Source: Zootoca vivipara (Eukaryota). From it: a stretch of 64,000 bases of DNA. The stretch spans positions 41,850,001 to 41,914,000 of the forward strand of contig NC_083279.1 of assembly GCF_963506605.1 (NCBI RefSeq). Reading direction: 5' to 3'. The notes under the pieces were generated by a model. It ran no database searches, was not told the origin of the DNA, and saw only the letters and a list, made by a program, of their open reading frames with translations. Both the position numbers and the translations under genes were made by a program. Every line of letters begins with the position of its first letter. Within the stretch, counting starts at the first letter, position 1. Shown here one piece after another: positions 5,577 to 62,103 of the stretch.

Positions 5577-5580
<4 letters not shown>

Positions 5581-5692
5581 CCCATTTATTCCTCTGTGTA
5601 GCTCTCAATAATCTATTGTAAATCACTGTGGCAAAGGTTTCTTTTTTTAAAGAATCAAACAATTGAAAGGGAAATAAAACTGCATAGGAGCA

Positions 5693-5913
5693 AAATAAAA
5701 AAATTCTTTCCAGTAGCACCTTAGAGACCAACCACGGTAAGTTTTTTATTGGTATGAGCTTTCGTGTGCATGCACACTTCTTCAGTGTCTGAAGAAGTGT
5801 GCATGCACACGAAAGCTCATACCAATGACAAACTTAGTTGGTCTCTAAGGTGCTACTGGAAGGATTTTTTTATTTTGTTTCGACTACGGCAGACCAACAC
5901 GGCTACCTACCTA
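5693..5913 (+). mobile_element. Penelope-like element (PLE) pseudo-LTR remnant, inverted plus direct copy
   Basis: Roughly 85-bp inverted repeat centred near 5787. 10-bp flanking duplication CATAGGAGCA at 5683-5692 and 5914-5923. Same family at 29633-29772 and 43481-43668. Contains a hammerhead core, typical of PLE pLTRs. Confidence 0.8.
5785..5822 (+). ncRNA. Minimal type-I hammerhead ribozyme motif
   Basis: GUGU-CUGAAGA-A-GUGUGC AU GCACAC-GAAA-GC-UC-AUAC. Stem I is GUGU/AUAC (one G-U pair), with a CUGANGA core, 6-bp stem II, GAAA, palindromic AGCU stem III and a UC cleavage site after 5818. Confidence 0.75.
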
Positions 5914-7659
5914 CATAGGAGCAGCACTATAACAGCTTCCTCTAGTAAGTATTTGACTTTCTAAAAGTAGGCAGTGAATGATTCATGCATGGTTCCTTAT
6001 AGATATAGCTAGTTTGCATGGCATGTTGTGCCAAACATTGGCTTAGCAAGGGTGTGTGAACATGTGGGCTTCTGGAGAGGAGCTCACAGACACTTTGCTC
6101 CTTCCTGGTCCTTTTGCTTTCCCACTGCACAACTCGTGGTGAACAAGGTGAGAGTATAATCAAGAGTCCCAGTTTGCTTAGTGTGGCAGTGAAAAGGGCT
6201 GGGGAAGAGCAAAGCAGCTCATGAGCTCCTCTCTGGGACCCCATGTTCACACACACTATGTTTGGCTTAGCTTGTTGAACAAACCAGGCCAGAGTTTGTT
6301 GAGCATTTCTTCTCTGTATACTAGTGTTTCCCTCAAATAAGTTCATAGCATGTGGTATCCAAGTGAAAGAGGCAGCCATCAAGACTCAGGTGTGCACTGA
6401 CACCACTAACATTAAATTCAACACTGACCTCACCTCCTTTCATCCCCACCAAAGCATTAAATGTCACCCACAACTTTGCATTATGCAAAGAAAGTTGCCA
6501 GAATGAGAGAGGCATTTCAGGTCGGCTGTAATTCAAACATGATAGGTGACAAAGCCTACTCACAGTGCTTTAGTGACTCAGTATCACAGAAAGAAACATG
6601 TGGGAAACAGCTGCCTCATGAAAAGAAGGCTGCTATCATCATTGTCATCTTACAAAGCACACAGAATTCAGTTCAAATTTAAATGCAATGGTAAGATTAC
6701 CATATTAAGGATTCTATTTACCACTGCAAAAATAAAGTGACCCTAAATTATGGTTAGTAAATGCATTAATTTATCCCCATAATAAATTGCTTGCATGTGG
6801 TAACACTGCTCATCTGTCATAACGGCCAGCCATGAATATCCATACTGTTCAGAGTGTAGATGGAATTTTCTTTTTCAAAATAATAATAATATTGATATAG
6901 TACTTATTCTTTCAATTCTCAACACTCCTTGTTGTCAATGTGAAGCAAGCTGGTTTCTCTTTTTTTTACCAATTCTTCCAAAAATACAAATAATTCTTTC
7001 TTAGTATAGACATTATTATTCATATTATTACAGTACTGTATGCTCATATTATGTCCATATACACTTCGGGTTTCCTGAAGTAACCAGAATATAAACAGAT
7101 ATATACAACAATCCATGTAACTGTAACAAAATACTTATACTGTATGTTAATACTTTTATGCTGCAGAAATATAGTACCACATGGAGTTTCGATTCTTCTA
7201 TACATATTACACATACACTTTGCATATTTTGTGATTATGAGTTTGCATATAATTAGCTTCTTTTCTTAATGATTATGCATAAGCTGCTGAGACATAAGTC
7301 AGCGCTTAAGGCAAGAAATGGTCCGATGCAGGCAAAACTCTTATCAAGTTGAACTGCCAAATTCCATGTACAAATCCATTTTTAAAAGATTCTTCCTCTG
7401 TCCCTAGTTTAGAGGCATTGTGTCTCCGATTACTAGTTGCTGGGACTCACCAGTGGGAAGAGTGCTGTTGCATTAAATCCTGCTTTCCGCAGGCATCTGC
7501 TTGGTCACCAGAAGTGCCAGCTTGGCCCCACAACTGTCGGTGTCATGCAGTGTGCTTGGCCCTGGCACCAAAACCTGTGCATGCCCAGTCCTTCCAGGGG
7601 GAATTTTGTGGGTGCTAGGGCACCCTGGGCCCCAGGGAATTCACACCTGTGCTTATCAA

Positions 7660-7828: not shown

Positions 7829-8410
7829 CATGGGCGTAGGCAGGGGGGCAGGAGGGGGCAATTGCCCCCCCCAGAAGTAGGGCCGCTGGCCAGCCTGCCC
7901 CGCTGCCCGCCCGGTGCCGTCTCCCTTCTCCCTGGCTGTGGGGTGGGCGGAGGGAAAGCCCCAGAGCCGCACAAAGCATTTGGCTGGCTTTCCCTCCGCC
8001 CGCCCCACAGCCAGCAAGGGAGAAGGGAGACGTCCCTTCTAGCTGGCTGGCTGTGGGGCGGGCGGAGGGAAAGCCAGCCAAATGCTTTGCGCGGCTCTGG
8101 GGCTTTCCCTCCGCCCGCCCTGGCGATCGCAGAGGGGATTGGAGCAGCCCGATTTCGGGCTGATCCTGGCGCCCCCTCGCCCCTGCCGATCGTGGAGGGG
8201 GAGGAAGGAGTCGGAGCAGCCCGATTTTGGGCTGATCCTGGCGCCCCCTCGCCCCTGCTCCGACCCCCTCCTCCCCCTCCGCGATCGCCGGGGCGGGTGG
8301 AGGGAAAGCTGGCAAGGGAGAAGGGAGCTTTCCTTGCCCCGCTGTGGCCCCTCCCCCTCCCCTTGGCCCCGCCCCTTGCCCCCCTAATTTTCATCCTGGC
8401 TACGCCCCTG
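7829..8410. mobile_element. Non-autonomous hAT DNA transposon, 582 bp, GC-rich palindromic interior
   Basis: TIRs CATGGGCGTAGGCAG / CTGGCTACGCCCCTG. Perfect 8-bp TSD TACTGGGC at 7821-7828 and 8411-8418. Confidence 0.9.
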
Positions 8411-12122: not shown

Positions 12123-12192
12123 ATTTACACTTTAAGAACACTGATCAAACTTGTTTTCTTTGTGTGTAATATGGCTTCAATAGGTTTTAAAC

Positions 12193-12328
12193 CAGGCATC
12201 CCCAAACTGCGGCCCTCCAGATGTTTTGGCCTACAACTCCCAAGATCCCTAGCTAACAGGACCAGTGGCCAGGGATGATGGGAATTGTAGTCCAAAACAT
12301 CTGGAGGGCCGAAGTTTGGGGATGCCTG
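12193..12328. mobile_element. hAT MITE, 136 bp, near-palindromic
   Basis: TIRs CAGGCATCCCCAAACT / AGTTTGGGGATGCCTG. 8-bp TSD TTTTAAAC at 12185-12192 and 12329-12336. Confidence 0.93.
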
Positions 12329-12439
12329 TTTTAAACTCTCTCTTTTATTAATTCCAACTTGTTTTGCATCCCTAAAGGCCATCTGATTCTTTATGTTCCA
12401 CATTGATCACTGAGATCCTGTGATGAGTACTTCTGGTCA

Positions 12440-29632: not shown

Positions 29633-29772
29633 ACATCTGAAGAAGTGTGCATGCACACGAAAGCTTATACCCAGAACAAACTTAGTTGGTCTTTAAGGTG
29701 CTACTGGGATTTTTTATTATTATTATTATTATTTAATTTGACTGTGTCAGACCAACACAGCTACCTACCTGA
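29633..29772 (+). mobile_element. PLE pseudo-LTR remnant (single orientation) starting at the hammerhead core
   Basis: atCTGAAGAagtgtgcatgcacacGAAAgcttatac...cttagttggtctttaaggtgctactgg...cagaccaacacagctacctacctg, nearly identical to 5789-5913. Confidence 0.85.
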
Positions 29773-32700
29773 ATCTAACAGCATAGCTTGCAGTTTTGCC
29801 AGAGTTTCAGCTCAGGTTGGGGAGCTTCCCCACACTTGGCCAGGAATAGACAGCAGTAGTAATTCACGTCTTCCAAGGCATAGATTAATCACAGTTCTAT
29901 AAAGTAAACTTCTGGGACTTGCTGCAGGGAAAAGGAGAGTCAGTGGTAGAAGTGCCATTGAGCTTTTTTTGTGAGGTCACTTAGAATGCTGCCAAAGGCT
30001 TGAGCTTTTGCAAATGTTTGGTTGCAAAGACTCGTCTTACCCTTTGACAGGGAGCAGGACGCTTGTACATATGGCACAGGACTTAGCTGATTGTTCCAAG
30101 AGATTCTATTATTTTATCCATCTTGTAATTTAATATATTAGCTGTATTAATGGGCCATTATAGCTGGTGAAAAATCCTACCCACATATCTGGCTGACAGT
30201 GTACAATTTGCATACTATGAAATAACCAACTTGTTACTTAAAAATAGGACACATCTTTTCATATTTGAAAACACTTAATGGCTATAATTCAGCACAGAGC
30301 TAAGCGCACTGGCCTGTGGAAACAAATGGCTAGAAACATGCCTTTAAATCTAGGTGTAGACAAATTATCTCACCATAGCTAGATTAGGTTGCTTGATGAT
30401 CTGCTGTAAATTGCAAAAAGATGATAATGAAACATGTACATTTTAGGAGATTATTATTGTTTTAATACCAGAGTGTTTTAGGACTAATAAAAGAGAAAGA
30501 ATTTATATTGCAATCAGCTTTATATACACAGTTACATTTTAAAAGCTCAGGAGTGCATTTGTGGACATGGAGTTCTAGCCAAAACATATCAACAGCAGAT
30601 CTAAACATGTTAATATTTAAGGAAATACCTTTAAATTCCTGCATCACAGTACCTTATTTGACAGTTTTTATACTGGCATTGGCTTCTTGTCAATCCTTTT
30701 CTCAGGTTCAGCTTTCCTAGAAATCAATTGTGCTCCCATAAAACACACTTCCCACCTTTGACATAGGAATGGAAAGGCAAGGTGCTTTAGAAATGCAGAG
30801 AACATAGGGGAAATTTGATTTTTAATAGTGCACTCCATTGTTCCCTTTACTTTCTCAAACCATGCACATGAAGTATTTGGATAACACAAAATTATAAAAC
30901 TTAGTTATAAAAGGTGAACATAGGACAAAACAACTTATCAGATATAGACTTTGGAATGTGTACATTTTAAGCCAATACTAATTATACGCTAGGCATGCTG
31001 TATCTTGAAACATGAAAAACCTATGTGGTTTTAGGAAAATAAGATTTTTTTTCTTTCTAGAATCAACCCACTGACTATTTTTATTGAATGCAAGGTTGAA
31101 GGTTACAGGAAGAGAATCCCACAATCCGCCCTGAAATACCCAAGTCAAAGAATGCTAAGTAAATCATTCCACAATAAAGTAAGTCATAACCTTTAAAAAT
31201 GTAAAGGGGCAAAACCAGTTCTAAACAAATGGCTCAATTTTTCTTGTTGAAGTGCCATAGTGACAGAGCATTTCATAGAACCTTTATGGTTTCACATGTC
31301 TACAACATTACAATGCAGACTTACAATAAAATACTTTATGAGAGATTTGGCAGTAAAACTGGCAGCACAAACCTCTAATACAAAACCATATTGTATTGGA
31401 GTATTTCTAAGATACCACACAACAGACAGGACAGGAGAAGAAGGCAAGACATAAAACCTTAACTAATTACTAAGGAGTACTAAGTACAGCGCCAGCTAAT
31501 GGTTGGTGATGTTGCTTATATATTCATTACAATATATCTGTTACACAACATAGTCTGTTTTAAAAAATTCAGTAGTTCTTCAACAGCATTGGCAATATAG
31601 CCTCACTAAGGAAAAAAAAAGAAACACTGCTTCTCATAAAATTCCATCTAATTATGGGGCCTATCAAAAAGTCATTAAAGTGCTACAAGGAGAGGCAATG
31701 TAAATAGAAGATACTTCAGCCCAGAGGCATTACATCAGGAATCCTCATGGAAATGAATTATTAAATAAGAGAAACATCTGAATACTGATATGGCATCTAA
31801 AATCCATCTCACACTACAGTTTTACATAAGGCATTGAACAGCAGATACATTCTTCATAAGTCAGCAACTACATTATTCTCCTAACTACCCCTCCCCAACA
31901 GTTGTAGGTGGTTGCTGAACGAAGGACACAGATTTTAGAGCAACACATCACTTCAGAAATATGCAGACAGTTCAAGAAGTGATGACCCCCAGCATATTAA
32001 ACCATGAGCATTTTGATCTTTGGCCCGTTAAATAATGCCACTTTTGTTCAGTACATTTGGGGACAAATAGTACACTTTGACATCAGGGTACAAAGTCCAG
32101 ATTTTGAGAGAGAAAAGAGACCCTTTTACATGTGAACTGTCAGATGAAGTGCAGAGCGCAAGAGAAGGTCAGAGTGTTCATTGAAAAACAATGAAAGCAC
32201 TGATAAAAAAAATTCATTAGCCCAAAATAAATTTTTGGATTAAAAGTATTAAAAAAAATGTTTATCACAACTAAACATATTGTGGTCACGATGGTATTCA
32301 GTACTTCAGCCATCCATGGCACTGGTTTATTACGTGCAAAATTAATCCAACTACTATATGATCCTATAGTGGCATAATACAACCTCTGTCTGCTTTCACT
32401 TGCATTCATCACTGCTCCAAGAAGTCACTAAAAGCAAATAATGTACAAATTATTCAAGAAGCAGCCAACTCAGGTCAAAGAATTTGAGAGGTAGGCATTG
32501 AGAAGTATACATTACCTAGACAGTTTGGTTCTGATTGAAAGGGCATAGCTAAAATTATACACTTCGCAACATTCAGTGAGTCTTGGAAACGGAGCTCACA
32601 TATTTGTGCAAAATGCTGGATCTCTAGAAAATCAAATAGCATCATTTATATGTAGCACCTTGAATACTGGTGAAGTGTGAGAGCCCAAGATTAAAGTCTT

Positions 32701-35533: not shown

Positions 35534-35989
35534 TGAGGACCCTGACCAGACAGGGTTAGTTTACATCCCCATGGAGGAAGATATACACCCATTCATCTAT
35601 ATGTACATAGGCCTTCAGATCCCAGTGTAAAATTAAAATTAAATTAAATTATTACATCTTTCCTTCAAATGGTTTGAATCAATGCTGATTTGGAGCAACA
35701 TGTTTCTCAGTCAAGCTAGCAGATGGCAGTTACTATCACTTCTCCCTATCCTTTCCTTTCCTTTTCTTCAGAATTACCCAGGAATCCTCTGGAGAGATGT
35801 ACCTGTTAGTGTCTTTCTTAAAGGGGAAGGTTCTATAGGTTATTGGGAACCCTAGGAAGCTGTGGCGAACAATGAGAAGGAGCTACCCTGGTTAAAGCCA
35901 GGAACCTATCACTATTTTGCCACTGGATTAGCAAACAAACAAACAAACAAAACCTACTAAGCCTAGCTGTGAATCCCTACACTCTAATG

Positions 35990-36113
35990 CAGGCATCCCC
36001 AAACTTCAGTCCTCCGGATGTTTTGGACTACAATTCCCATCTTCCCTGACCACTGGTCTTGTTAGCTAGTTGTAGCCCAAAACATCTGGAGGGCCACAGT
36101 TTGGGGATGCCTG
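35990..36113. mobile_element. hAT MITE (family of 12193-12328, opposite orientation, small internal deletion)
   Basis: TIRs CAGGCATCCCCAAACT / AGTTTGGGGATGCCTG. TSD CTCTAATG at 35982-35989 and 36114-36121. Confidence 0.93.
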
Positions 36114-36369
36114 CTCTAATGACACTGCTGTTATGAATTTTCCTAATCTCACCTACTTCTGACTCTCATGAGATGTGAAAAACTGTTTTGCGTGTAATAT
36201 TTTTTTCTTCCTGGCTCTTTCTCTTTTTGCATTGTGAAGTTGAATCTCTAAGCTTCCTGTTCATTTCCTGTCCTATTAGGCAAACTCTGTGTTTCTAATC
36301 TCTCCCCTCTATATCTAAAATAATAACTAAGCATATGGTCCAGGAAGAGTGTGGGTGTTAGCCTGTGTA

Positions 36370-36412: not shown

Positions 36413-36475
36413 TATGCTTCTGTAACTGCATGTTACTTATAAATCATTTATAGTGGTATGTTCTTGCCTTTAAAG

Positions 36476-36612
36476 CAGGCTTCCTCAACCTCAGCCCTCC
36501 AGATGTTTTCGGCCTACAACTCCCATGAACCCTAGCTAGCAGGACCAGTGGTCAGGGATGATGGGAATTGTAGTCTCAAAAACATCTGGAGGGCCGAGGT
36601 TGAGGAAGCCTG
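36476..36612. mobile_element. hAT MITE (TIR variant subfamily)
   Basis: TIRs CAGGCTTCCTCAACCTC / GAGGTTGAGGAAGCCTG. TSD CTTTAAAG at 36468-36475 and 36613-36620. Confidence 0.93.
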
Positions 36613-39600
36613 CTTTAAAGCATTATTCTTTCACATATGAAAGAAATTACGGTTGTATTCCTAGTGTGGCTCTTGCTAGTTCTCTGGAGAAAGCACGTTC
36701 ATATTGGTTCTTTATTGGTTGGTGTTAAATCTCACAAAAAAGCAAGGTATTGATATTCAGTGCAATCCTGCCTGAAATGCACAATTGCCTTTAGTAGAAA
36801 TCCCAAGAACAGCTAATTCCCCAAGTCAGAGCTAGTGTGCTCTTCCCTGCTGCCCTCACTCGCTTGTTAACTCTGTTCAGTAGCACCTAAATAGGGCTAC
36901 TGTTGTGTTCTCATCTGGTAAGAAACAAACAAGTTAGAAAAAATTAATGCAAAAAAAAATATTTGAATGCAGGCATGGCTAGTCTTAGTTTCTCCTCTCA
37001 GTGAAACCACACTGTAGTTTTTATTATCAACCATTGTACGTCATGTTTTGCTCCTTAGATTTAAGTAATAAAAGCACACAGAAATCTCTCATGGCAGGCA
37101 AATAATTGTTTTTGTTTTCCAAGAGTTGACTTGGTCTAGGCCATATTTCAACAAGCAGCGTGGCTGCAGGTCTCATACTGAGAATTGGCTCTGGCATATT
37201 TTAAAAGAGGCTATTCCCTGCTCTTGAGTGTGTGTTTTTCTTCTTATTTTTGCAACCATTCTAAATCTCATTTTGGCTTACATTAAACAAGCACTTATAA
37301 AACAGGACAGAAGCAGAACAGTGTCTCTTTCTTAGAATTCACGAAATAACCACATCATGTGCACCAAGAATTCAGGCACTCAAGGAACCTATCTCAAATC
37401 TTTTGTATTTATGTTTTCTTAAAACAACAGCAGTCACCGCTACCTTTTTAGTTTGAGAAATTTAATCATTTCCATAAAAAGGAAATTCTTTGAAGGAATG
37501 TATGTTTTAAAAAACCACTTGGGCACCATTCATTTGAGGAAGAAAACTCAATTTGAGAGCAAGCATGACAAAAACACACACACTAAGTGTGAGTTATACA
37601 AATAGCACAATAGTTTCTTGTTTAGAGACACAGTCAGAAGTACCATATGTGAAATAACTTTCCCTGCTCCATATATGCTCTTAAAATAAAACATAAATGT
37701 TTCTGCAGCAGTCTTTCCCAACCTTATGCCTTCCAAATCCAACAGTAAAATTGCCAGCAACTCTATCCAGCAGGTTGCCCATTCTTGAAACCCTGCACCT
37801 TGTGTATTTGCTTAAGAAAAGCTCTTGCAACACCATTCCTTCCCACTGAGCACACCTGCTCTATCGCCTTTAGCTTGATGCAATTTTCCCTTTCTGCCTG
37901 CTCCTTACGGCAGAATCTGTAGGAATTTGACTGTGATCTTGTCTATTACTGTATTTTAATGTAAACTCATTCCTGGGTCAGTTCTCAAAGTTTCAGCTCA
38001 GTCTTTCTCCCTGAAACATTTCAAGGATGCTTTTTCTACCCAACCAAATCCTCCAAATTTAGCCACACTCCTGTTAAATTGAAAATTGCACTTATTTCTG
38101 GGCCAGCTTAGCCAGACTGACAACAGTATGTCCTTTGGCAGGAGCCTGGGACCTCAGAGGATAGTGTTTCCCATAGTGTCTGATTAAATCCCCCCCCCCC
38201 CGTTACCTATTGTTCCTGAGGATCTTACTCCCTCAACACAGAAAATAGGTTTACCTGTATACCAAAATACATACACTGAGAAAGTGTGGTAGCAGGTTTC
38301 ATGTCTTACTCCTCATCATTTTCCCTCCTCATTTCTTCCTTTGGACTGTCCAGTCCAGTTAAAATTCTAGAGGAAGTAAAACTGCTGAAAATGAAGTGAA
38401 GAAGAAGAAAAAAACACCTGTCAATTAGGGCCAGAAGGGTAATGAAGAACTGCAATTATATTTGTCTGCTAGTCAGTCATTCAGTTTCAAGAGGCATTCA
38501 ATGCCCTAAATAAACTTTATTTTTCACCTTTGTAATTAAAAAGGATTACATTCATTAAAAGCAGTAAAGCTGATGGACGATATGCTTGCCAAATGAAAGT
38601 TGAGGGAGAGAACTGTTTAAATTTCACATGCTGCTTTATATAAGAATTGCATGTGTTTATCAAATTACCTAGCAGGCAAAGATGAAAGTAAGAAAACTTT
38701 CATCAAAAGGAATGGCTAAGTAGTCTGACACCGCAATCATCAACACATCAAATGGAAAATAAGTTCCGCAGAATCCTATAATACTTTCATAGATTGTTTT
38801 GAGATTTATTGTATTTCATTTTTTATATTAATTTATTACTTTTTTAAACTGCCTTTTATTGGTTTTGCTATAAAAGTGGAATAAAAACAACGAGTGTCAT
38901 CCAATTAAATTCTACCCCATGTTAGACATGTTCATTAATTTTGTTTCTCTATGCTGTGTGACTAACATTGCTACAACCAATAATTAATAACACTAAACAT
39001 CAAAATATATTCTCCCCCCCCCCAAAAAAACCCCAACATATAAATACCCTAATATAAGTTGGATTAGTTTTGGGGGCCTCACCAGCCTGCCCTCTCCCCA
39101 GTGCCACAGTCTCCCCTCTCCCAAAATTGCAAGCCCAAGACTTCATGCAAGGGCAGGGCAACTCGGGCCCAGCAACTATGAGACTCGGGGCTAGCCAGTG
39201 GGGCCCAATTTGAAGCAGTGGGGCGCAACTTGAATTATTATTATTTTGTGCTATTTTGTACTATTTTGAATAGTAGCATGCCTGGTATCTGGTGGGCAAT
39301 CTCACCCTTTATTTCCACACTGTGGCTGCAGACCAAATCACCTGTCAGGAGAGTTATGAGATTCAGGTGAGAGTCAGGTGCCTTGTCAATCCCAGCAGGT
39401 ATATAAGAGGAAGATCGCCCTGGCCAGGCCTTCGCCCTTAGGTTTTAGCAGAAGTTGAATGATAGTGGAATGGAAACAATGCTTATTGTGGCGAACAAAG
39501 GACAGGGCAGAAACCAATTCCACACTATATCCCTAGTGTGGGGAAAGTGTTAAATGCTCTCTCTTCCTCCTTGCACTTCCAATCCTGATTAACTTCTCAT

Positions 39601-42560: not shown

Positions 42561-43480
42561 TCCTTTCACTTGATCCAAAACGGTCAAGTGCCTGAGGGGC
42601 ATTAATATAGCAGCTAGACCCAACTACTCAGCACTGGTCAGAGCCATCATTCTCAGGATGGAGCATCTGGCAGGTGTCAGCACTGGCCTTTCTGGGGACC
42701 CTGGAACTGCTCAAGGATACCACACGCTGATGCTGGTCCTGGAAGAGTCAATGAGCAAGAAAATAAAGTTTATAAAGCAACTCCCCAAAATGGCTGTGAG
42801 AAGTAATCTAATTCATGTCTCCGTATGTATAGGAGAACCAAAAGAGCAGCAAATAAATCTGGCTATCAAAAAAAAGTATTTCTTTTGGAACACTAGTCAA
42901 GAGTAGAGACAACTTATGGAACAAAATGTATTGTCATAAAAATAAGGAGGAAGGGTCTATAAAGCTACCAACTTTAATGTAACGGCAGCACATTTATATC
43001 TTAAATAAAACAAAGTTGAAAGTTATTTTAAAGTTTTCAGGATGACTGTTTTCAAATTTAATTTTCACTTACTTTTTTATTCATGGCACCTTCATTGAAC
43101 TAGGTGAAATTCACTGTCAGGAAGATTAGTTTTATTTGGCATCAGTAGATATTTCAAGATGAATGTGAATGATCAAGAGGCTGAATAAAATGTCAATCCC
43201 ACACTCCCTTGATTTTCCCTGCTTCAGTATGCTTTTTATGGCCACAGACTACTTTTTCCTCCACACACTTACTGTATAAAAGTCTCCTTCTAGCCTCCGA
43301 TATACAAATCAAAATGGGCATTATTTGCAGTATACTACAAATGGGAGGTTTCAATTTCTGTTGCTACTACACACGTTGTGTGTAAACATTGGTATCTTGC
43401 TTCCCCTGTATTTACCGGTATGTCCCTGGAATCAGCAAATTCCAAACATGTAAATGTGGAAAACTAAATGTATAATTATT

Positions 43481-43668
43481 TTAAAAAATTCCTTCAGTAG
43501 CACCTTAAAGACCAACTAAGTTTTTATTTTGGTATGAGCTTTCGTGTGCATGCACACTTCGTCAGATACATGCACACGAAAGCTCATACCAAAATAAGTT
43601 GGTCTTTAAGGTGCTACTGAAGGATTTTTTTAATTTTGTTTCGACTCAGACCAACACGGCTACCTACC
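43481..43668 (+). mobile_element. PLE pseudo-LTR remnant, inverted plus direct copy
   Basis: Fold-back structure of the same family as 5693-5913. Flanking duplication TGTATAATTATT at 43469-43480 and 43669-43680. Confidence 0.85.
43532..43569 (-). ncRNA. Minimal type-I hammerhead ribozyme motif
   Basis: Minus strand GUAU-CUGACGA-A-GUGUGC AU GCACAC-GAAA-GC-UC-AUAC. Perfect stem I GUAU/AUAC. The only core difference from the other copies is at the freely variable position 7. Confidence 0.8.
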
Positions 43669-46600
43669 TGTATAATTATTATATGTTTAATTACACACAC
43701 ACACACACCCCCAAAAAAACCATGTAGAGAAAATGGCATAAGTGGCAAGGCTCACTGTTGTGTAATGTGATACAATACAAATAATACAATTAGGATTTTT
43801 ATCTTGTATATACCTCAAGACAGGCTTAGAAAATAATAATTTCAGGCCCCAAATCATTTACAAATATTCATGGGCTGGATAGGGATCTTGAGCTCATTTC
43901 TTCTCATCCAGAATATAAATCAAGGCATCCTGCCTGCATGAAACATTAGCAGGTTAGAATTTCCAGTCTCAAAATATTTGTACAGCTGTATAATACTCTG
44001 AGCAAGCTACTGCATATTTCATCTACAATTAAACCAAGATCTGACATTTAGAATATTCGTGTTTCCTCAGTGAATTCCCAGATCCCTCTGCGTTAAGACA
44101 CCAGGCATCTATAGTTGCTAATAAGATGCATATTTTGCCCCTTGTGGATGAAAGATCCTTGGGATTTTTTTGGGGGGGGAGGGAGGGTTGCAACAATCCT
44201 TGTAGTGTTGCTTTCAGAGCAACAGTGTCTCTTATTGACAGAGTATTCTATTGCTGGTCCTGATTTCTGGAAGGAGACATGTTACAAAGTGGAACCTCAA
44301 AAGGGAAATATGAATATTCTTATGCTCACTGAATACATTTACATTTATATGTATAGCATAACATCGATTGATTCAGCGAGTGTGTGTTTGGGTGTAATTT
44401 CTATAGTGTTTAAGGGAGTTCTCATGTTTTGCTGTGAGTGGTACGCCTGGCATTCATTGTTCCCAGTTTAATTCTACGCACTTTGGAAACAGGAGTTTAA
44501 ATAAGCTATCTCACACATAGCAGCTCTGCAGTGATTTATTGTTCGTCCCTTGTGACTGACTTCTTACATGCCCTCTGTGCCCTTAAATATTTGGCAAGCA
44601 GCCTACATGACCTAAATGTTTCACACTTGGGCCTGATGTGAATGGGGAGCCCTCTAATAATTGCCTCCTCCAATGCAACATATCTCCTCAAGTTCTTCCA
44701 GTATTGTTCTGTAGTGCTTCACATCAGGGAATTCAATTAACAAGGACAATGTGATGTTGCAGTGTGTGTGTGTGTGTGTTTCATCTTGCTAAACGGAAGC
44801 TGTATAGCAGTCACAAAAAGGCTTTTTTAAAAAAAAGAAAGAAAAAGGTTAAATTGGGAATAAAATTTAAAAGTAGAATCACCTGTCAGCATGTCACTTT
44901 AACCATGAAGAAAAAAGTCTGTCAACAGTTACTTTATTTGACAGTGTCTATTTTAAACTTTTGTTCCACATTGCAAAGTAGTTTAAAATGAATTACCAGT
45001 ACATTGAACCTAGATTATGTGAATTCTTGTCACCATGTTTGCTTGTATGAGACATTGTGATAATTGCCTAAAGGGGGGAACTGAGGGAAGGTGCAGCCTT
45101 GAAACAAAAAAACAAAAACTCCCAATACATCACCAAGTGATTTTATTGTCTAAAGTTAGAGAAGTTTCATATATTAAATATATAATGAGTTGAACATGTG
45201 TAGCTATCCCCCCCACACACAAACACACACACTATTACACCAAGGTGGCAACATGTCTGTTTTTCTGTTTTCGTTCTTTAATGTGACAGACTGTATGTAT
45301 ATGTAGTAGAGAGCTGTAATTGGCCTGGTTCCCACCTGTATGCAGAAATGGGGGAAGGGGAATTCATGCAGCCACCTTACAGTGTACTGTACAGTGCCAG
45401 GTATGTCTGGTGCATTACTGTCTAGGTATTATTATATTTTTAAAAAATATTTCTACCCAACACTTCATTGTTACTGACCCTAATAAAATCTAGCATAGCA
45501 GTAGAAAAAGAAGACCATTAAAATTCATATTAAAAATCAGAGGACACTGCAAAAACTCCATAGACTGATATCACATAAGTACTTAGGAAAAGGTTTTAAG
45601 TTTGTGCTGAAAGTAGAGTTGACACCAACCACATCTCCAAAGGGAGGTTGTTGCACAACCAGGGTACCATGACCCCAAAGACCCCACCCTGTGTTAATGC
45701 ACAAACATTTCTGGCATCCCTTCAAATAGAATTAAAAGAACTTCTTGTAAAGGGCACTTGAAATCTCAGAGCTCTCCATAACCAATCAATAAGTGTTACA
45801 GTGCTTTGAATAGATTAGGAATGTAGGAGATTTGAGCATTTATTATTTCAGGGAGCCCTACAGTAGTGCGTAGGCACTCCCATGTCAATGGCAATAGATG
45901 TTTTTGATGAGAATGTTTTAGGGTAATTTTGTCCTAGCTTGTTAAATTAGGAGAACTACTAAATGATCAGAATAGTGTTCTTTGGTAGCATTAAGACTCA
46001 ATCCTGAAGACAGTTGAATTGCATAGAAAGCAGAATTCACTAATTTTCATTTCATGTCATCAACTGCCATGCAAATTCAATGCCTAGTGTACAGTGGACA
46101 TATCTTGGGAGATCATGTGCACTGAACATAATTTCATTGTGCTTTCACCCTGTGAGAGTTTGCTGTGTTTCTAGGTAGTTGGCATAGAGTAGACATAAGC
46201 AAGAATTCATTTCATTGTTCATGTGTGCTGTTTCTTCATACTTAGATTTTCTTCCTTCTGTTTCTTTATGTTCTCAGATGGCACTCACTGAAATATACAC
46301 GTTGTAATATTCTTGCAGTACCAAATACCTGGGCAATATGAGGCATGTCATTGACATATCTCTAGTTTGCTATCTCTAGTGCTGAAGTGGGTGGAGACAA
46401 AGCATGGTATTGCTTTATCACTGTTTTCCTGTAAAAAATATAGTGCATATCAACAGAAAAGATCCTGCCTCAGACATCTACATTTAAATGTAAGCAAATG
46501 GCTTACTGGCTATGAGAAATGAGGTGCTGGATAAAGCACAAGTGAGCTGAGGCAAAGTAGAATAAATGATAAAGCCACTGACTTGCATGTTCCTATTTAT

Positions 46601-55611: not shown

Positions 55612-56620
55612 AATGCTTTTTAACATCTATATGAAGCCGCTGGGAGAGATCATTAGGGTTTGGGCTGGGTGTCCATGCGGATGACACCCAACTCTATCTC
55701 TCTTTTAAATCAGAACCAGTGAAGGCAGTGAATGTCCTGTGTGAGTGTCTGGAGGCAGTTGGAGGATGGATGGCGGCTGACAGATTGAGGTTGAATCCTG
55801 ACAAGACAGAAGTACTGTTTTGGGGGGACGGGGGGCAGGCAGGTATGGGGGACTCCCTGGTCCTGAATTGGATAACTGTGCCCTTGATGGACCAGGTGTG
55901 CAGCCTGGGAGTCATTTTGGACTCACAGCTGTCCATGGAGGCACAGGTTAATTCTGTGTCCAGGGCGGCTGTCTATCAGCTCCATCTGGTACGCAGGCTG
56001 AGACCCTACCTGCCCACAGACTGTCTCACCGGAGTGGTGCATGCTCTAGTTATCTCCCGCTTGGACTACTGCAATGCGCTCTATGTGGGGCTACCTTTGA
56101 AGGTGACCCGGAAACTGCAATTAATCTAGAATGCGGCAGCTAGACACGTGACTGGGAGCGGACACCGAGACCACATAACACTGGTCCTAAGAGCATTGGC
56201 TCTTAGTACGTTTCCGAGCACAATTCAAAGTGTTGGTGCTGACCTTTAAAGCCCTAAACAGCCTTGGTCCTATATACCTGAAGGAGCGTCTTCACCCCCA
56301 TTGTTCAGCCCGGACACTGAGATCCAGTGCTGAGGGCCTTCTGGCGGTTCCCTCACTGCGAGAAGCAAAGCTACAGGGAACCAGGCAGAGGGCCTTCTCG
56401 GTAGTGGCGCCTGCACTGTGGAACGCCCTTCCATTGGAGGTCAAGGAGATAAACAACTACCTGACATTTAGAAAACACCTAACAGCAGCCCTGTTTAGGG
56501 AAGTTTTTAATCTGTGATATTTTAATGTATTTTGGTATTTGTTGGAAGCCACTCAGAGTGGCGGGGAAAACCCAGCCAGATGGGTGGGGTATAAATAAAT
56601 AAACAAACAAATAATAATAA
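55612..56620 (+). mobile_element. 5'-truncated L2-clade LINE (RT and C-terminus pseudogene, 3' UTR, tail)
   Basis: LFNIYMKPLGEII...ADDTQLY (Y of YADD deleted), WMAADRLRLNPDKTE, SRLDYCNALYVGLP, RAFSVVAPALWNALP. Premature stop at 56127-56129 plus frameshifts. (TAAA)/(TAA) tail. Confidence 0.92.
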
Positions 56621-60792: not shown

Positions 60793-62103
60793 CTAGTGTA
60801 TTTCAGCCCGTTCAATAACGGGCGCTAGAACATCCTGGGGTTTGGAGAAGCGCTTGCGCAGCGCTTCTCCGAACCCTGGGACCTGTCCTTACTGTCGGCG
60901 GCAGGGGGACAGGAACGGAGGAGGAGAAAGCGCTGCTTTCTCCTCCTCCGTTCCTCTCTCCCAGCCGCCGACAGCAAGGAGACATCCTGGGGTTTGGAGA
61001 AGCGCTTGCGCAGCGCTTCTCCGAACCCTGGGACCTGTCCTTACTGTCGGCGGCAGGGGGACAGGAACGGAGGAGGAGAAAGCAGCTTTCTCCTCCTCCG
61101 TTCCTCTCTCCCAGCCGCCGACAGCAAGGAGACATCCTGGGGTTCGGAGAAGCGCTTGTGCAGCGCTTCTCCGAACCCTGGGACCTGTCCTTACTGTCGG
61201 CGGCAGGGGGACAGGAACGGAGGAGGAGAAAGCGCTGCTTTCTCCTCCTCCGTTCCTCTCTCCCAGCCGCCGACAGCAAGGAGACATCCTGGGGTTCGGA
61301 GAAGCGCTTGTGCAGCGCTTCTCCGAACCCTGGGACCTGTCCTTACTGTCGGCGGCAGGGGGACAGGAACGGAGGAGGAGAAAGCGCTGCTTTCTCCTCC
61401 TCCGTTCCTCTCTCCCAGCCGCCGACAGCAAGGAGACATCCTGGGGTTCGGAGAAGCGCTTGTGCAGCGCTTCTCCGAACCCTGGGACCTGTCCTTACTG
61501 TCGGCGGCAGGGGGACAGGAACGGAGGAGGAGAAAGCGCTGCTTTCTCCTCCTCCGTTCCTCTCTCCCAGCCGCCGACAGCAAGGAGACATCCTGGGGTT
61601 CGGAGAAGCGCTTGCGCAGCGCTTCTCCGAACCCTGGGACCTGTCCTTACTGTCGGCGGCAGGAGGACAGTAATGAAGAAGGAGAAAGCGCTGCTTTCTT
61701 CTCCTCCGTTCCTCTCCCGCAGCCGCCGACAGCAAGGAGACATCCCAGGGTTCGGAGAAGCGCTTGCGCAGCGCTTCTCCGAACCCTGGGACCTGTCCTT
61801 GTTGTCGCCGACAGGAAGGACGCGGGACACAAACCCCTACTTCGTCGCCGCTGCTTCGTGGCCTCCTGCCGCTCCTCTCACGGGCCAGGGAGGGTTGTGA
61901 GGAGGAGGTCTCCGCCGGCCTCCACCCTCGCTTCCCTGACGTTCTGGCCAGGAGCGGCGGTTGGAGGAGGCAGGGGGGGGGAGAGAGTGCGCGCGCGCAG
62001 TCTCTGCTGTCCAATCCCTGTGTCGCTGGGGCACATGCGCAGTGACCCAGGGACACACGGGACAGCTTGGACGCAGGGACAACTTGCAAATTATTATATA
62101 GGA
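60793..62103 (-). mobile_element. Complete non-autonomous Helitron (1311 bp)
   Basis: On the minus strand the 5' end is A|TCCTATATAATAA (62103 downward). The 3' end has the hairpin GCCCGTT-ATTG-AACGGGC (60806-60823), 9 nt before CTAG|T (60793-60796). Inserted between A and T with no TSD. All are canonical Helitron hallmarks. Confidence 0.9.
60829..61815. repeat. 152-bp GC/CpG-rich minisatellite, about 6.5 units, each unit an inverted dimer
   Basis: Unit starts (CATCC) at 60831, 60983, 61133, 61285, 61437, 61589 and 61741, giving spacings of 152, 150, 152, 152, 152 and 152. Confidence 0.97.

Follow-up and report, generated by a model that had tools for sequence, protein, structure and literature searches.

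A minimal type I hammerhead motif within a palindromic Penelope-like insertion in Zootoca vivipara

Introduction

Minimal hammerhead ribozymes (min-HHR) are known from the pseudo-LTRs (pLTRs) of Penelope-like elements (PLEs) of metazoans, reptiles included (Cervera and de la Pena, 2014, PMC4209133). The Schistosoma min-HHR was inactive as a monomer and weakly active as a dimer (PMC4209133). Insertions of endonuclease-bearing (EN+) PLEs are described as carrying an inverted 5'-truncated pLTR, a tail of 30-40 bp at one end and a target-site duplication (TSD), and their promoters as combining a TATA box with the initiator (Inr) TCACT (PMC3846280, PMC8557442). The presence of the tail at one end only is thus already in print in these two papers. 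A CX2-5CxxC linker between the reverse transcriptase (RT) and the endonuclease marks the Neptune and Nematis elements (PMC8557442). The best described lizard system is PAc, a Poseidon element of Anolis carolinensis, which cuts and extends both target strands in vitro and starts reverse transcription at two internal sites in vitro; its hammerhead cleaves only with the element protein and is dispensable for insertion in vitro (PMC11167929). Retrozymes have also been linked to PLE pLTRs (bioRxiv 10.64898/2026.07.22.740005).

We analyzed a window of 64,000 nucleotides of Zootoca vivipara (contig NC_083279.1, positions 41,850,001 to 41,914,000), in which a hammerhead motif lies within a palindromic repeat. 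It is very probable that positions 5785-5822 represent the hammerhead of a PLE pLTR and that the 220-bp insertion around them is a dead end, in which a mirror-image stump is predicted to trap the motif in a hairpin. The ribozyme class, its location in the pLTR and the inverted-arm architecture have already been published. No paper was found that gives counts for the one-tail rule or for the clustering of start sites, in a search of the main texts of open-access papers. Inert stumps of this kind number in the tens of thousands, and the locus alone is of little importance. The family as a whole is young, has intact ORFs and carries one nearly invariant hammerhead, and is therefore suited to testing two questions on PLEs, namely the origin of the inverted arm and tail, and the purpose of the ribozyme.

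Results and Discussion

Structure of the hammerhead motif

The motif is composed of the following parts, all on the plus strand:

5785-5822, plus strand: minimal type I hammerhead motif, identified from sequence, folding and covariation across families
5785-5788, plus strand: 5' strand of stem I, GTGT
5789-5795, plus strand: core CTGAAGA (CUGAAGA in RNA)
5796, plus strand: extra A before G10.1
5797-5810, plus strand: stem II segment GTGTGCATGCACAC
5811-5814, plus strand: GAAA
5815-5818, plus strand: GCTC, including C17 at 5818
5819-5822, plus strand: 3' strand of stem I, ATAC

The residues that define the type I class (C3 U4 G5 A6 N7 G8 A9, G12 A13 A14, A15.1-U16.1 and H17) are all present. 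A preliminary description of this DNA had named the hammerhead components, and each was found at its position, including the extra nucleotide preceding G10.1 (A5796) and the tiny palindromic stem III, AGCU. Stem I has 4 bp, one of them G-U. Cleavage is predicted at 5818/5819; the site proposed earlier, after C5818, agrees with the position of C17 and is likewise a prediction. The sequence GUGUGC/GCACAC proposed for stem II is present; its six pairs did not hold, because they would leave a loop of 2 nt. Stem II thus has 5 bp. When folded alone, the 38-mer formed stem I with 4 bp and stem II with 5 bp closed by a CAUG loop, and its stability did not exceed that of shuffled sequences (z 0.16).

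The motif is not a chance match, since its 30-nt core gave four matches within 3 mismatches in the window versus none in 100 shuffles, and 18,022 exact copies in the 1.44-Gb genome versus none for the reversed control. Rfam hammerhead models derive from canonical motifs. The Rfam check suggested in the preliminary description detected no hammerhead family, even at E up to 10, and returned only sub-threshold matches to microRNA hairpins. Judged by its sequence, 5785-5822 is a genuine minimal type I hammerhead motif.

The motif resembles the min-HHRs of PMC4209133 in being type I, in its short stem I, in the extra nucleotide between 9 and 10.1, in the pair G10.1-C11.1 and in the palindromic 15.2-16.2 without loop 3, as well as in its thousands of dispersed copies and close opposite-strand pairs. 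Unlike the Schistosoma motifs described there, which have a stem II of 7-8 bp, stem II here comprises 5 bp and a tetraloop and is fully palindromic. The motif is also nearly invariant in this genome, in contrast to the high variability reported in that paper.

Conservation and covariation

All sampled arms came from one end of a single contig (first 5-8 Mb). The older sample consisted of the first 100 exact matches of the older anchor, and the younger sample of 159 younger-anchor arms from the first 5 Mb of contig 1. Representatives of four subfamilies differed at 0-1 of the 38 hammerhead nucleotides, versus 3-14 of about 42 upstream and 1-7 of about 43 downstream positions. Among the 159 young arms, N7 varied in 23/124 and the eight other core positions together in 2/1026; the N7 variants are inherited and therefore not independent.

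Covariation was assessed in 15 motifs picked by hand from several hammerhead-like families in the genome; the search patterns had fixed the outer pairs of stem II, and one misaligned row was retained. In this set, 76% of cells were paired, versus 59% when shuffled and 28-47% when slid. Two-sided changes were found in seven of the nine stem I and stem II pairs of this set. These families have kept the core, with stems altered compensatorily. Conservation of CUGANGA/GAAA was found in the sampled copies and covariation of the stems across families; the absence of both had been named beforehand as one possible refutation.

In old copies, non-CpG core positions carried 8/412 mismatches versus 15/808 in the flank, in per-position counts that exclude the 5/100 arms not aligning through the anchor. 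G12 was lost in 16/73 and C11.1 in 12/74, as expected from CpG decay. These counts indicate that there is no selection on the core after insertion and that old copies decay neutrally. The sequence comparisons thus indicate that the motif is selected in active lineages and that its conservation runs only through them.

In a second dispersed hammerhead family, for example at G000:C1:457185-457216 (L192-L211), the core looks intact, stem II has 6 bp with a bulge, and stem I is of the GAGC/GCUC type. Of 444 pattern matches, the first 100 belonged mostly to this family, and a tblastn search of its flanks gave no match to the Penelope ORF.

Anatomy of the insertion

The insertion and the related stumps in the window are as follows:

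5683-5692, plus strand: left target-site duplication CATAGGAGCA
5693-5912: insertion of 220 bp (approximate limits), two pLTR stumps between copies of CATAGGAGCA
5693-5785, minus strand: inverted arm, a second 5'-truncated pLTR stump with a short (untailed) 3' end
5756-5785, minus strand: exact hammerhead core without stem I
5785-5912, plus strand: direct arm, from the pLTR of a Neptune-type PLE, 5'-truncated so that it begins 4 nt before C3, with a long (tailed) 3' end
5880-5912, plus strand: optional tail of 30-40 nt, in the direct arm only (approximate limits)
5914-5923, plus strand: right target-site duplication CATAGGAGCA
29635-29778, plus strand: third stump, a non-palindromic pLTR with hammerhead (H17 = U) and tail (approximate limits)
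43481-43668, strand not assigned: another palindromic stump, from a sister subfamily with N7 = C and with a tail on one arm

The TSD of the 5693-5912 insertion is 10 bp long. The two arms are complementary at 96% of positions between 5738-5785 and 5789-5836, and at 90% between 5693-5732 and 5837-5876. The inverted (left) arm begins at C3 on the minus strand and has a T-rich short end. Its hammerhead core has no stem I, because the 5' flank GACA cannot pair with AUAC. Both insertion junctions were present in one DNA run, possibly the source of the assembly itself, and no empty-site allele was seen in this run. The stump at 43481-43668 is flanked by a 12-bp duplication (43469-43480 and 43669-43680).

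With its head-to-head inverted, 5'-truncated stump, one tailed arm and short duplication, the insertion conforms to the EN+ PLE insertions of PMC3846280 and PMC8557442. It differs from those described there in consisting of two stumps alone, with the ORF absent. It shares with non-LTR retrozymes its non-coding nature, PLE derivation and type I hammerhead. Retrozymes, however, are direct tandems with a ribozyme in each unit, whereas this locus is one inverted pair that is unable to fold one (bioRxiv 10.64898/2026.07.22.740005).

The left arm also has a 5-nt insertion near 5733-5737, which resembles the tail sequence after the second AGACCAAC. The tail and the anchor region pair in the folded RNA, and the 5-nt insertion may be a template slip.

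The parent Penelope-like element

The downstream 24-mer of the subfamily to which the window copy belongs has 12,623 genome copies, and the matching 27-mer of the younger subfamilies 12,103 and 8,047 copies. In longer copies, the motif is preceded by sequence encoding an RT and a GIY-YIG endonuclease. Many intact reading frames of 925 aa were recovered from the family by protein search, and Pfam identified RVT_1 (E 5e-12) and GIY-YIG (E 6e-5) on the 925-aa frame. The single ORF with RT and C-terminal GIY-YIG that is typical of EN+ PLEs is thus carried by family members and not by the 5693-5912 stump. Head-to-tail tandems of pLTR-ORF-pLTR with a period of 3,030 bp, their pLTRs bearing the hammerhead, were found at three loci (L163, L165 and L166). 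The origin of the hammerhead from a Penelope pLTR, suggested in the preliminary description, is borne out by these tandems and by the RT and GIY-YIG of the longer copies.

The linker C-X4-C-X2-C (C-NKPR-C-QL-C) precedes the GIY-YIG domain, and by this motif the element is provisionally classified as Neptune-type, a mark that Nematis also has. The likely start codon of the ORF is located 133 nt after C3. Full pLTRs have a TATA box about 20 bp before an Inr-like TCACT/TCAGT, as in the EN+ PLEs of PMC3846280 and PMC8557442. Like PAc, the element is a lizard PLE with a hammerhead in the pLTR and two 3' ends that define the tail. PAc differs in belonging to the Poseidon clade and in having an ORF that begins inside stem II (PMC11167929), as opposed to the Neptune/Nematis-type linker and the later ORF start here.

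Two further arrangements were observed in the family. At one locus (L168, G000:C1:2777000-2780500), four units of 598 bp follow one another in direct orientation, and every unit contains a pLTR and a hammerhead; this tandem is retrozyme-like and internally deleted, and dimer folding would be possible in it. At L163:3380-3457, after the stop codon of the ORF and ahead of the pLTR promoter, five reads in each of three RNA runs skip 78 nt with GC..AG ends. The joined form was in none of the loci examined, and the skip points either to splicing of an intron or to a genomic copy that has lost this segment.

Formation of the palindrome

An inverted neighbour arm was located beside 47 of the 100 sampled arms; such arms commonly arise when PLEs insert. 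Exactly one arm was tailed in 38 of 39 short head-to-head pairs. Young pairs were flanked by a duplication of 8-16 nt (mode 12) in 26/27 cases, versus 24/702 in the control. Both arms shared the subfamily marker in all 25 scorable pairs.

The truncated 5' ends were clustered at -8..-3, in 33/91 young arms (p 7e-13) and 19/75 old arms (p 3e-4), after 68 of the 159 young arms that continue past the TATA box had been set aside. This cluster adjoins the start predicted by the TATA box and the Inr-like TCA(G/C)T. The breakpoints were also considered as a mark of ribozyme cutting, and this was not supported, with ends at the cut site in 0/91 young arms and in 3/75 old arms (p 0.66 for the latter, not above background). 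A splice acceptor just 5' of stem I, in the style of D. virilis, was set aside in favour of the Inr as the less probable reading. The -7/-6 position reads CAG, AAG or TAG in several subfamilies and CAC in the commonest young one, and truncated copies show no run-in to a common upstream exon. RNA reads had no pile-up at -7, and small ones at -30 and -28 in one of three runs.

We infer that the palindrome is a repair product and not a regulatory design. In the active element, transcription would start about 7 nt before C3 at the Inr-like TCA(G/C)T, with the TATA box about 28-30 nt upstream, a start placed solely from motifs and breakpoints. The ribozyme would work only as a dimer or with an element protein, and would process element RNA. 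At 5693-5912, the GIY-YIG enzyme would have introduced one nick in each strand, with about 12 nt between the two. Reverse transcription would then have been primed by both exposed 3' ends on the first 90-130 nt or so of uncut element RNA, one at the short start site and the other at the long (tail) site, and head-to-head joining of the distal ends of the two cDNAs would have completed the insertion. The one-tail rule and the 5' ends near the predicted start, not the cut, fit such double priming on uncut RNA. By analogy with PAc, each nicked strand may have supplied one of the primings, and these may have begun at the pair of start sites described for that element; as with PAc, there was no sign of cut RNA as template (PMC11167929).

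If the template is an uncut transcript starting just 5' of the hammerhead, cleavage would therefore be an exit from or brake on transposition and not a step in template-making. The chances are about even that the stumps in general are such an in vivo record of Penelope retrotransposition, in which both target strands, with nicks about 12 nt from each other, serve as primers on a single uncut RNA species at two fixed sites, cleavage acts as exit or brake, and the hairpins enter host RNA in quantity. If true, hairpin stumps would flood host transcripts with long double-stranded RNA.

The inverted arm could also have arisen by fold-back self-priming of one cDNA or from an antisense template, as suggested for Adineta Penelope in the discussion of PMC3846280. 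The markers shared by both arms and the asymmetric apices with short palindromic microhomology would agree with this. However, copy-back of one cDNA cannot add a missing tail, yet it was the untailed arm that extended further 5' in 18/22 untied pairs (p 0.004), and short ends occur on non-inverted pLTRs too. We therefore regard fold-back as unlikely, although the window copy is a mild exception, its tailed arm being slightly further 5' than the untailed one.

Copying of the whole palindrome as a non-autonomous mobile unit, MITE-like or retrozyme-like, would account for the apices common to L001 and L002 and to L006 and L027, and the 598-bp tandem of four pLTR units at L168 could be seen in the same light. 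Against this, apex position and arm lengths vary between sites, L002 has the same apex as L001 but a shorter left arm, and the arms carry the subfamily markers of the autonomous element. Such a unit is highly improbable, and double priming on uncut RNA is preferred as the origin of the palindrome.

The hammerhead within the hairpin

The sequestration by the adjacent inverted arm that the preliminary description had expected was borne out by folding, in which the motif and the upstream arm formed a single long hairpin (-77.8 kcal/mol, z -18). The cost of forcing the hammerhead fold was 57 kcal/mol for the complete insertion, 45 kcal/mol for a nascent plus-strand RNA ending at 5822 and only 1.4-2.0 kcal/mol in the native pLTR context. 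The hammerhead at 5785-5822 is thus predicted to be inaccessible by 45-57 kcal/mol. In either direction of transcription, the antisense arm is made ahead of the motif. The nearest same-strand dimer partner within the window is 24 kb away. Folding models predict that the hammerhead is permanently held in the hairpin by its mirror-image stump.

Transcription was surveyed in about 6% of each of three RNA runs from one study with the same species label and an unspecified tissue. No RNA read covered the unique flanks (5580-5654 and 5955-7529) in any of the three runs, 97-99% of the reads placed on the 5693-5912 locus continue into unrelated sequence, and the reads on the hairpin derive from other copies. 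At a young pLTR-ORF junction, stump reads were thousands deep on both strands, 82-92% of them extending into unrelated flanks, and the depth at the ORF start was at most 12. No pile-up of read ends was found at the cut in this ordinary RNA-seq, which is weak evidence either way. Among the 235 stop-to-stop frames of at least 62 aa, 144 were scanned for a host gene and none reached the Pfam cut-off.

Since its own mirror-image copy is predicted to lock the motif in a hairpin, 5693-5912 is probably the inert remnant of an insertion rather than a switch. The earlier suggestion of a folding-dependent switch, in which a host transcript would toggle between the long hairpin and an active hammerhead, is hardly credible: the plus-strand motif is intact in all core residues, the isolated motif lies only 1.4 kcal/mol from its ensemble and family stumps are plentiful as passengers in host RNA, but the suggestion is contradicted by the 45-57 kcal/mol preference for a hairpin whose antisense arm is transcribed first, by the minus-strand copy without stem I, by the lack of a same-strand partner within 24 kb in the window, by the zero RNA depth in the flanks and by the lack of core selection in old copies.

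Other repeats in the window

Several further repeats were detected in the window. A GC-rich array at 60833-61818 consists of tandem units of about 152 bp that are made of imperfect palindromes. Clustered inverted repeats, also GC-rich, occupy 7918-8360 and contain a pair of 88-bp arms (7941-8120). Short inverted-repeat elements at 6052-6256, 12186-12335, 35989-36114 and 36468-36620 are probably MITE-like. The weak RVT_1 match at 55635-56126 (E 0.005) probably represents a LINE fragment.
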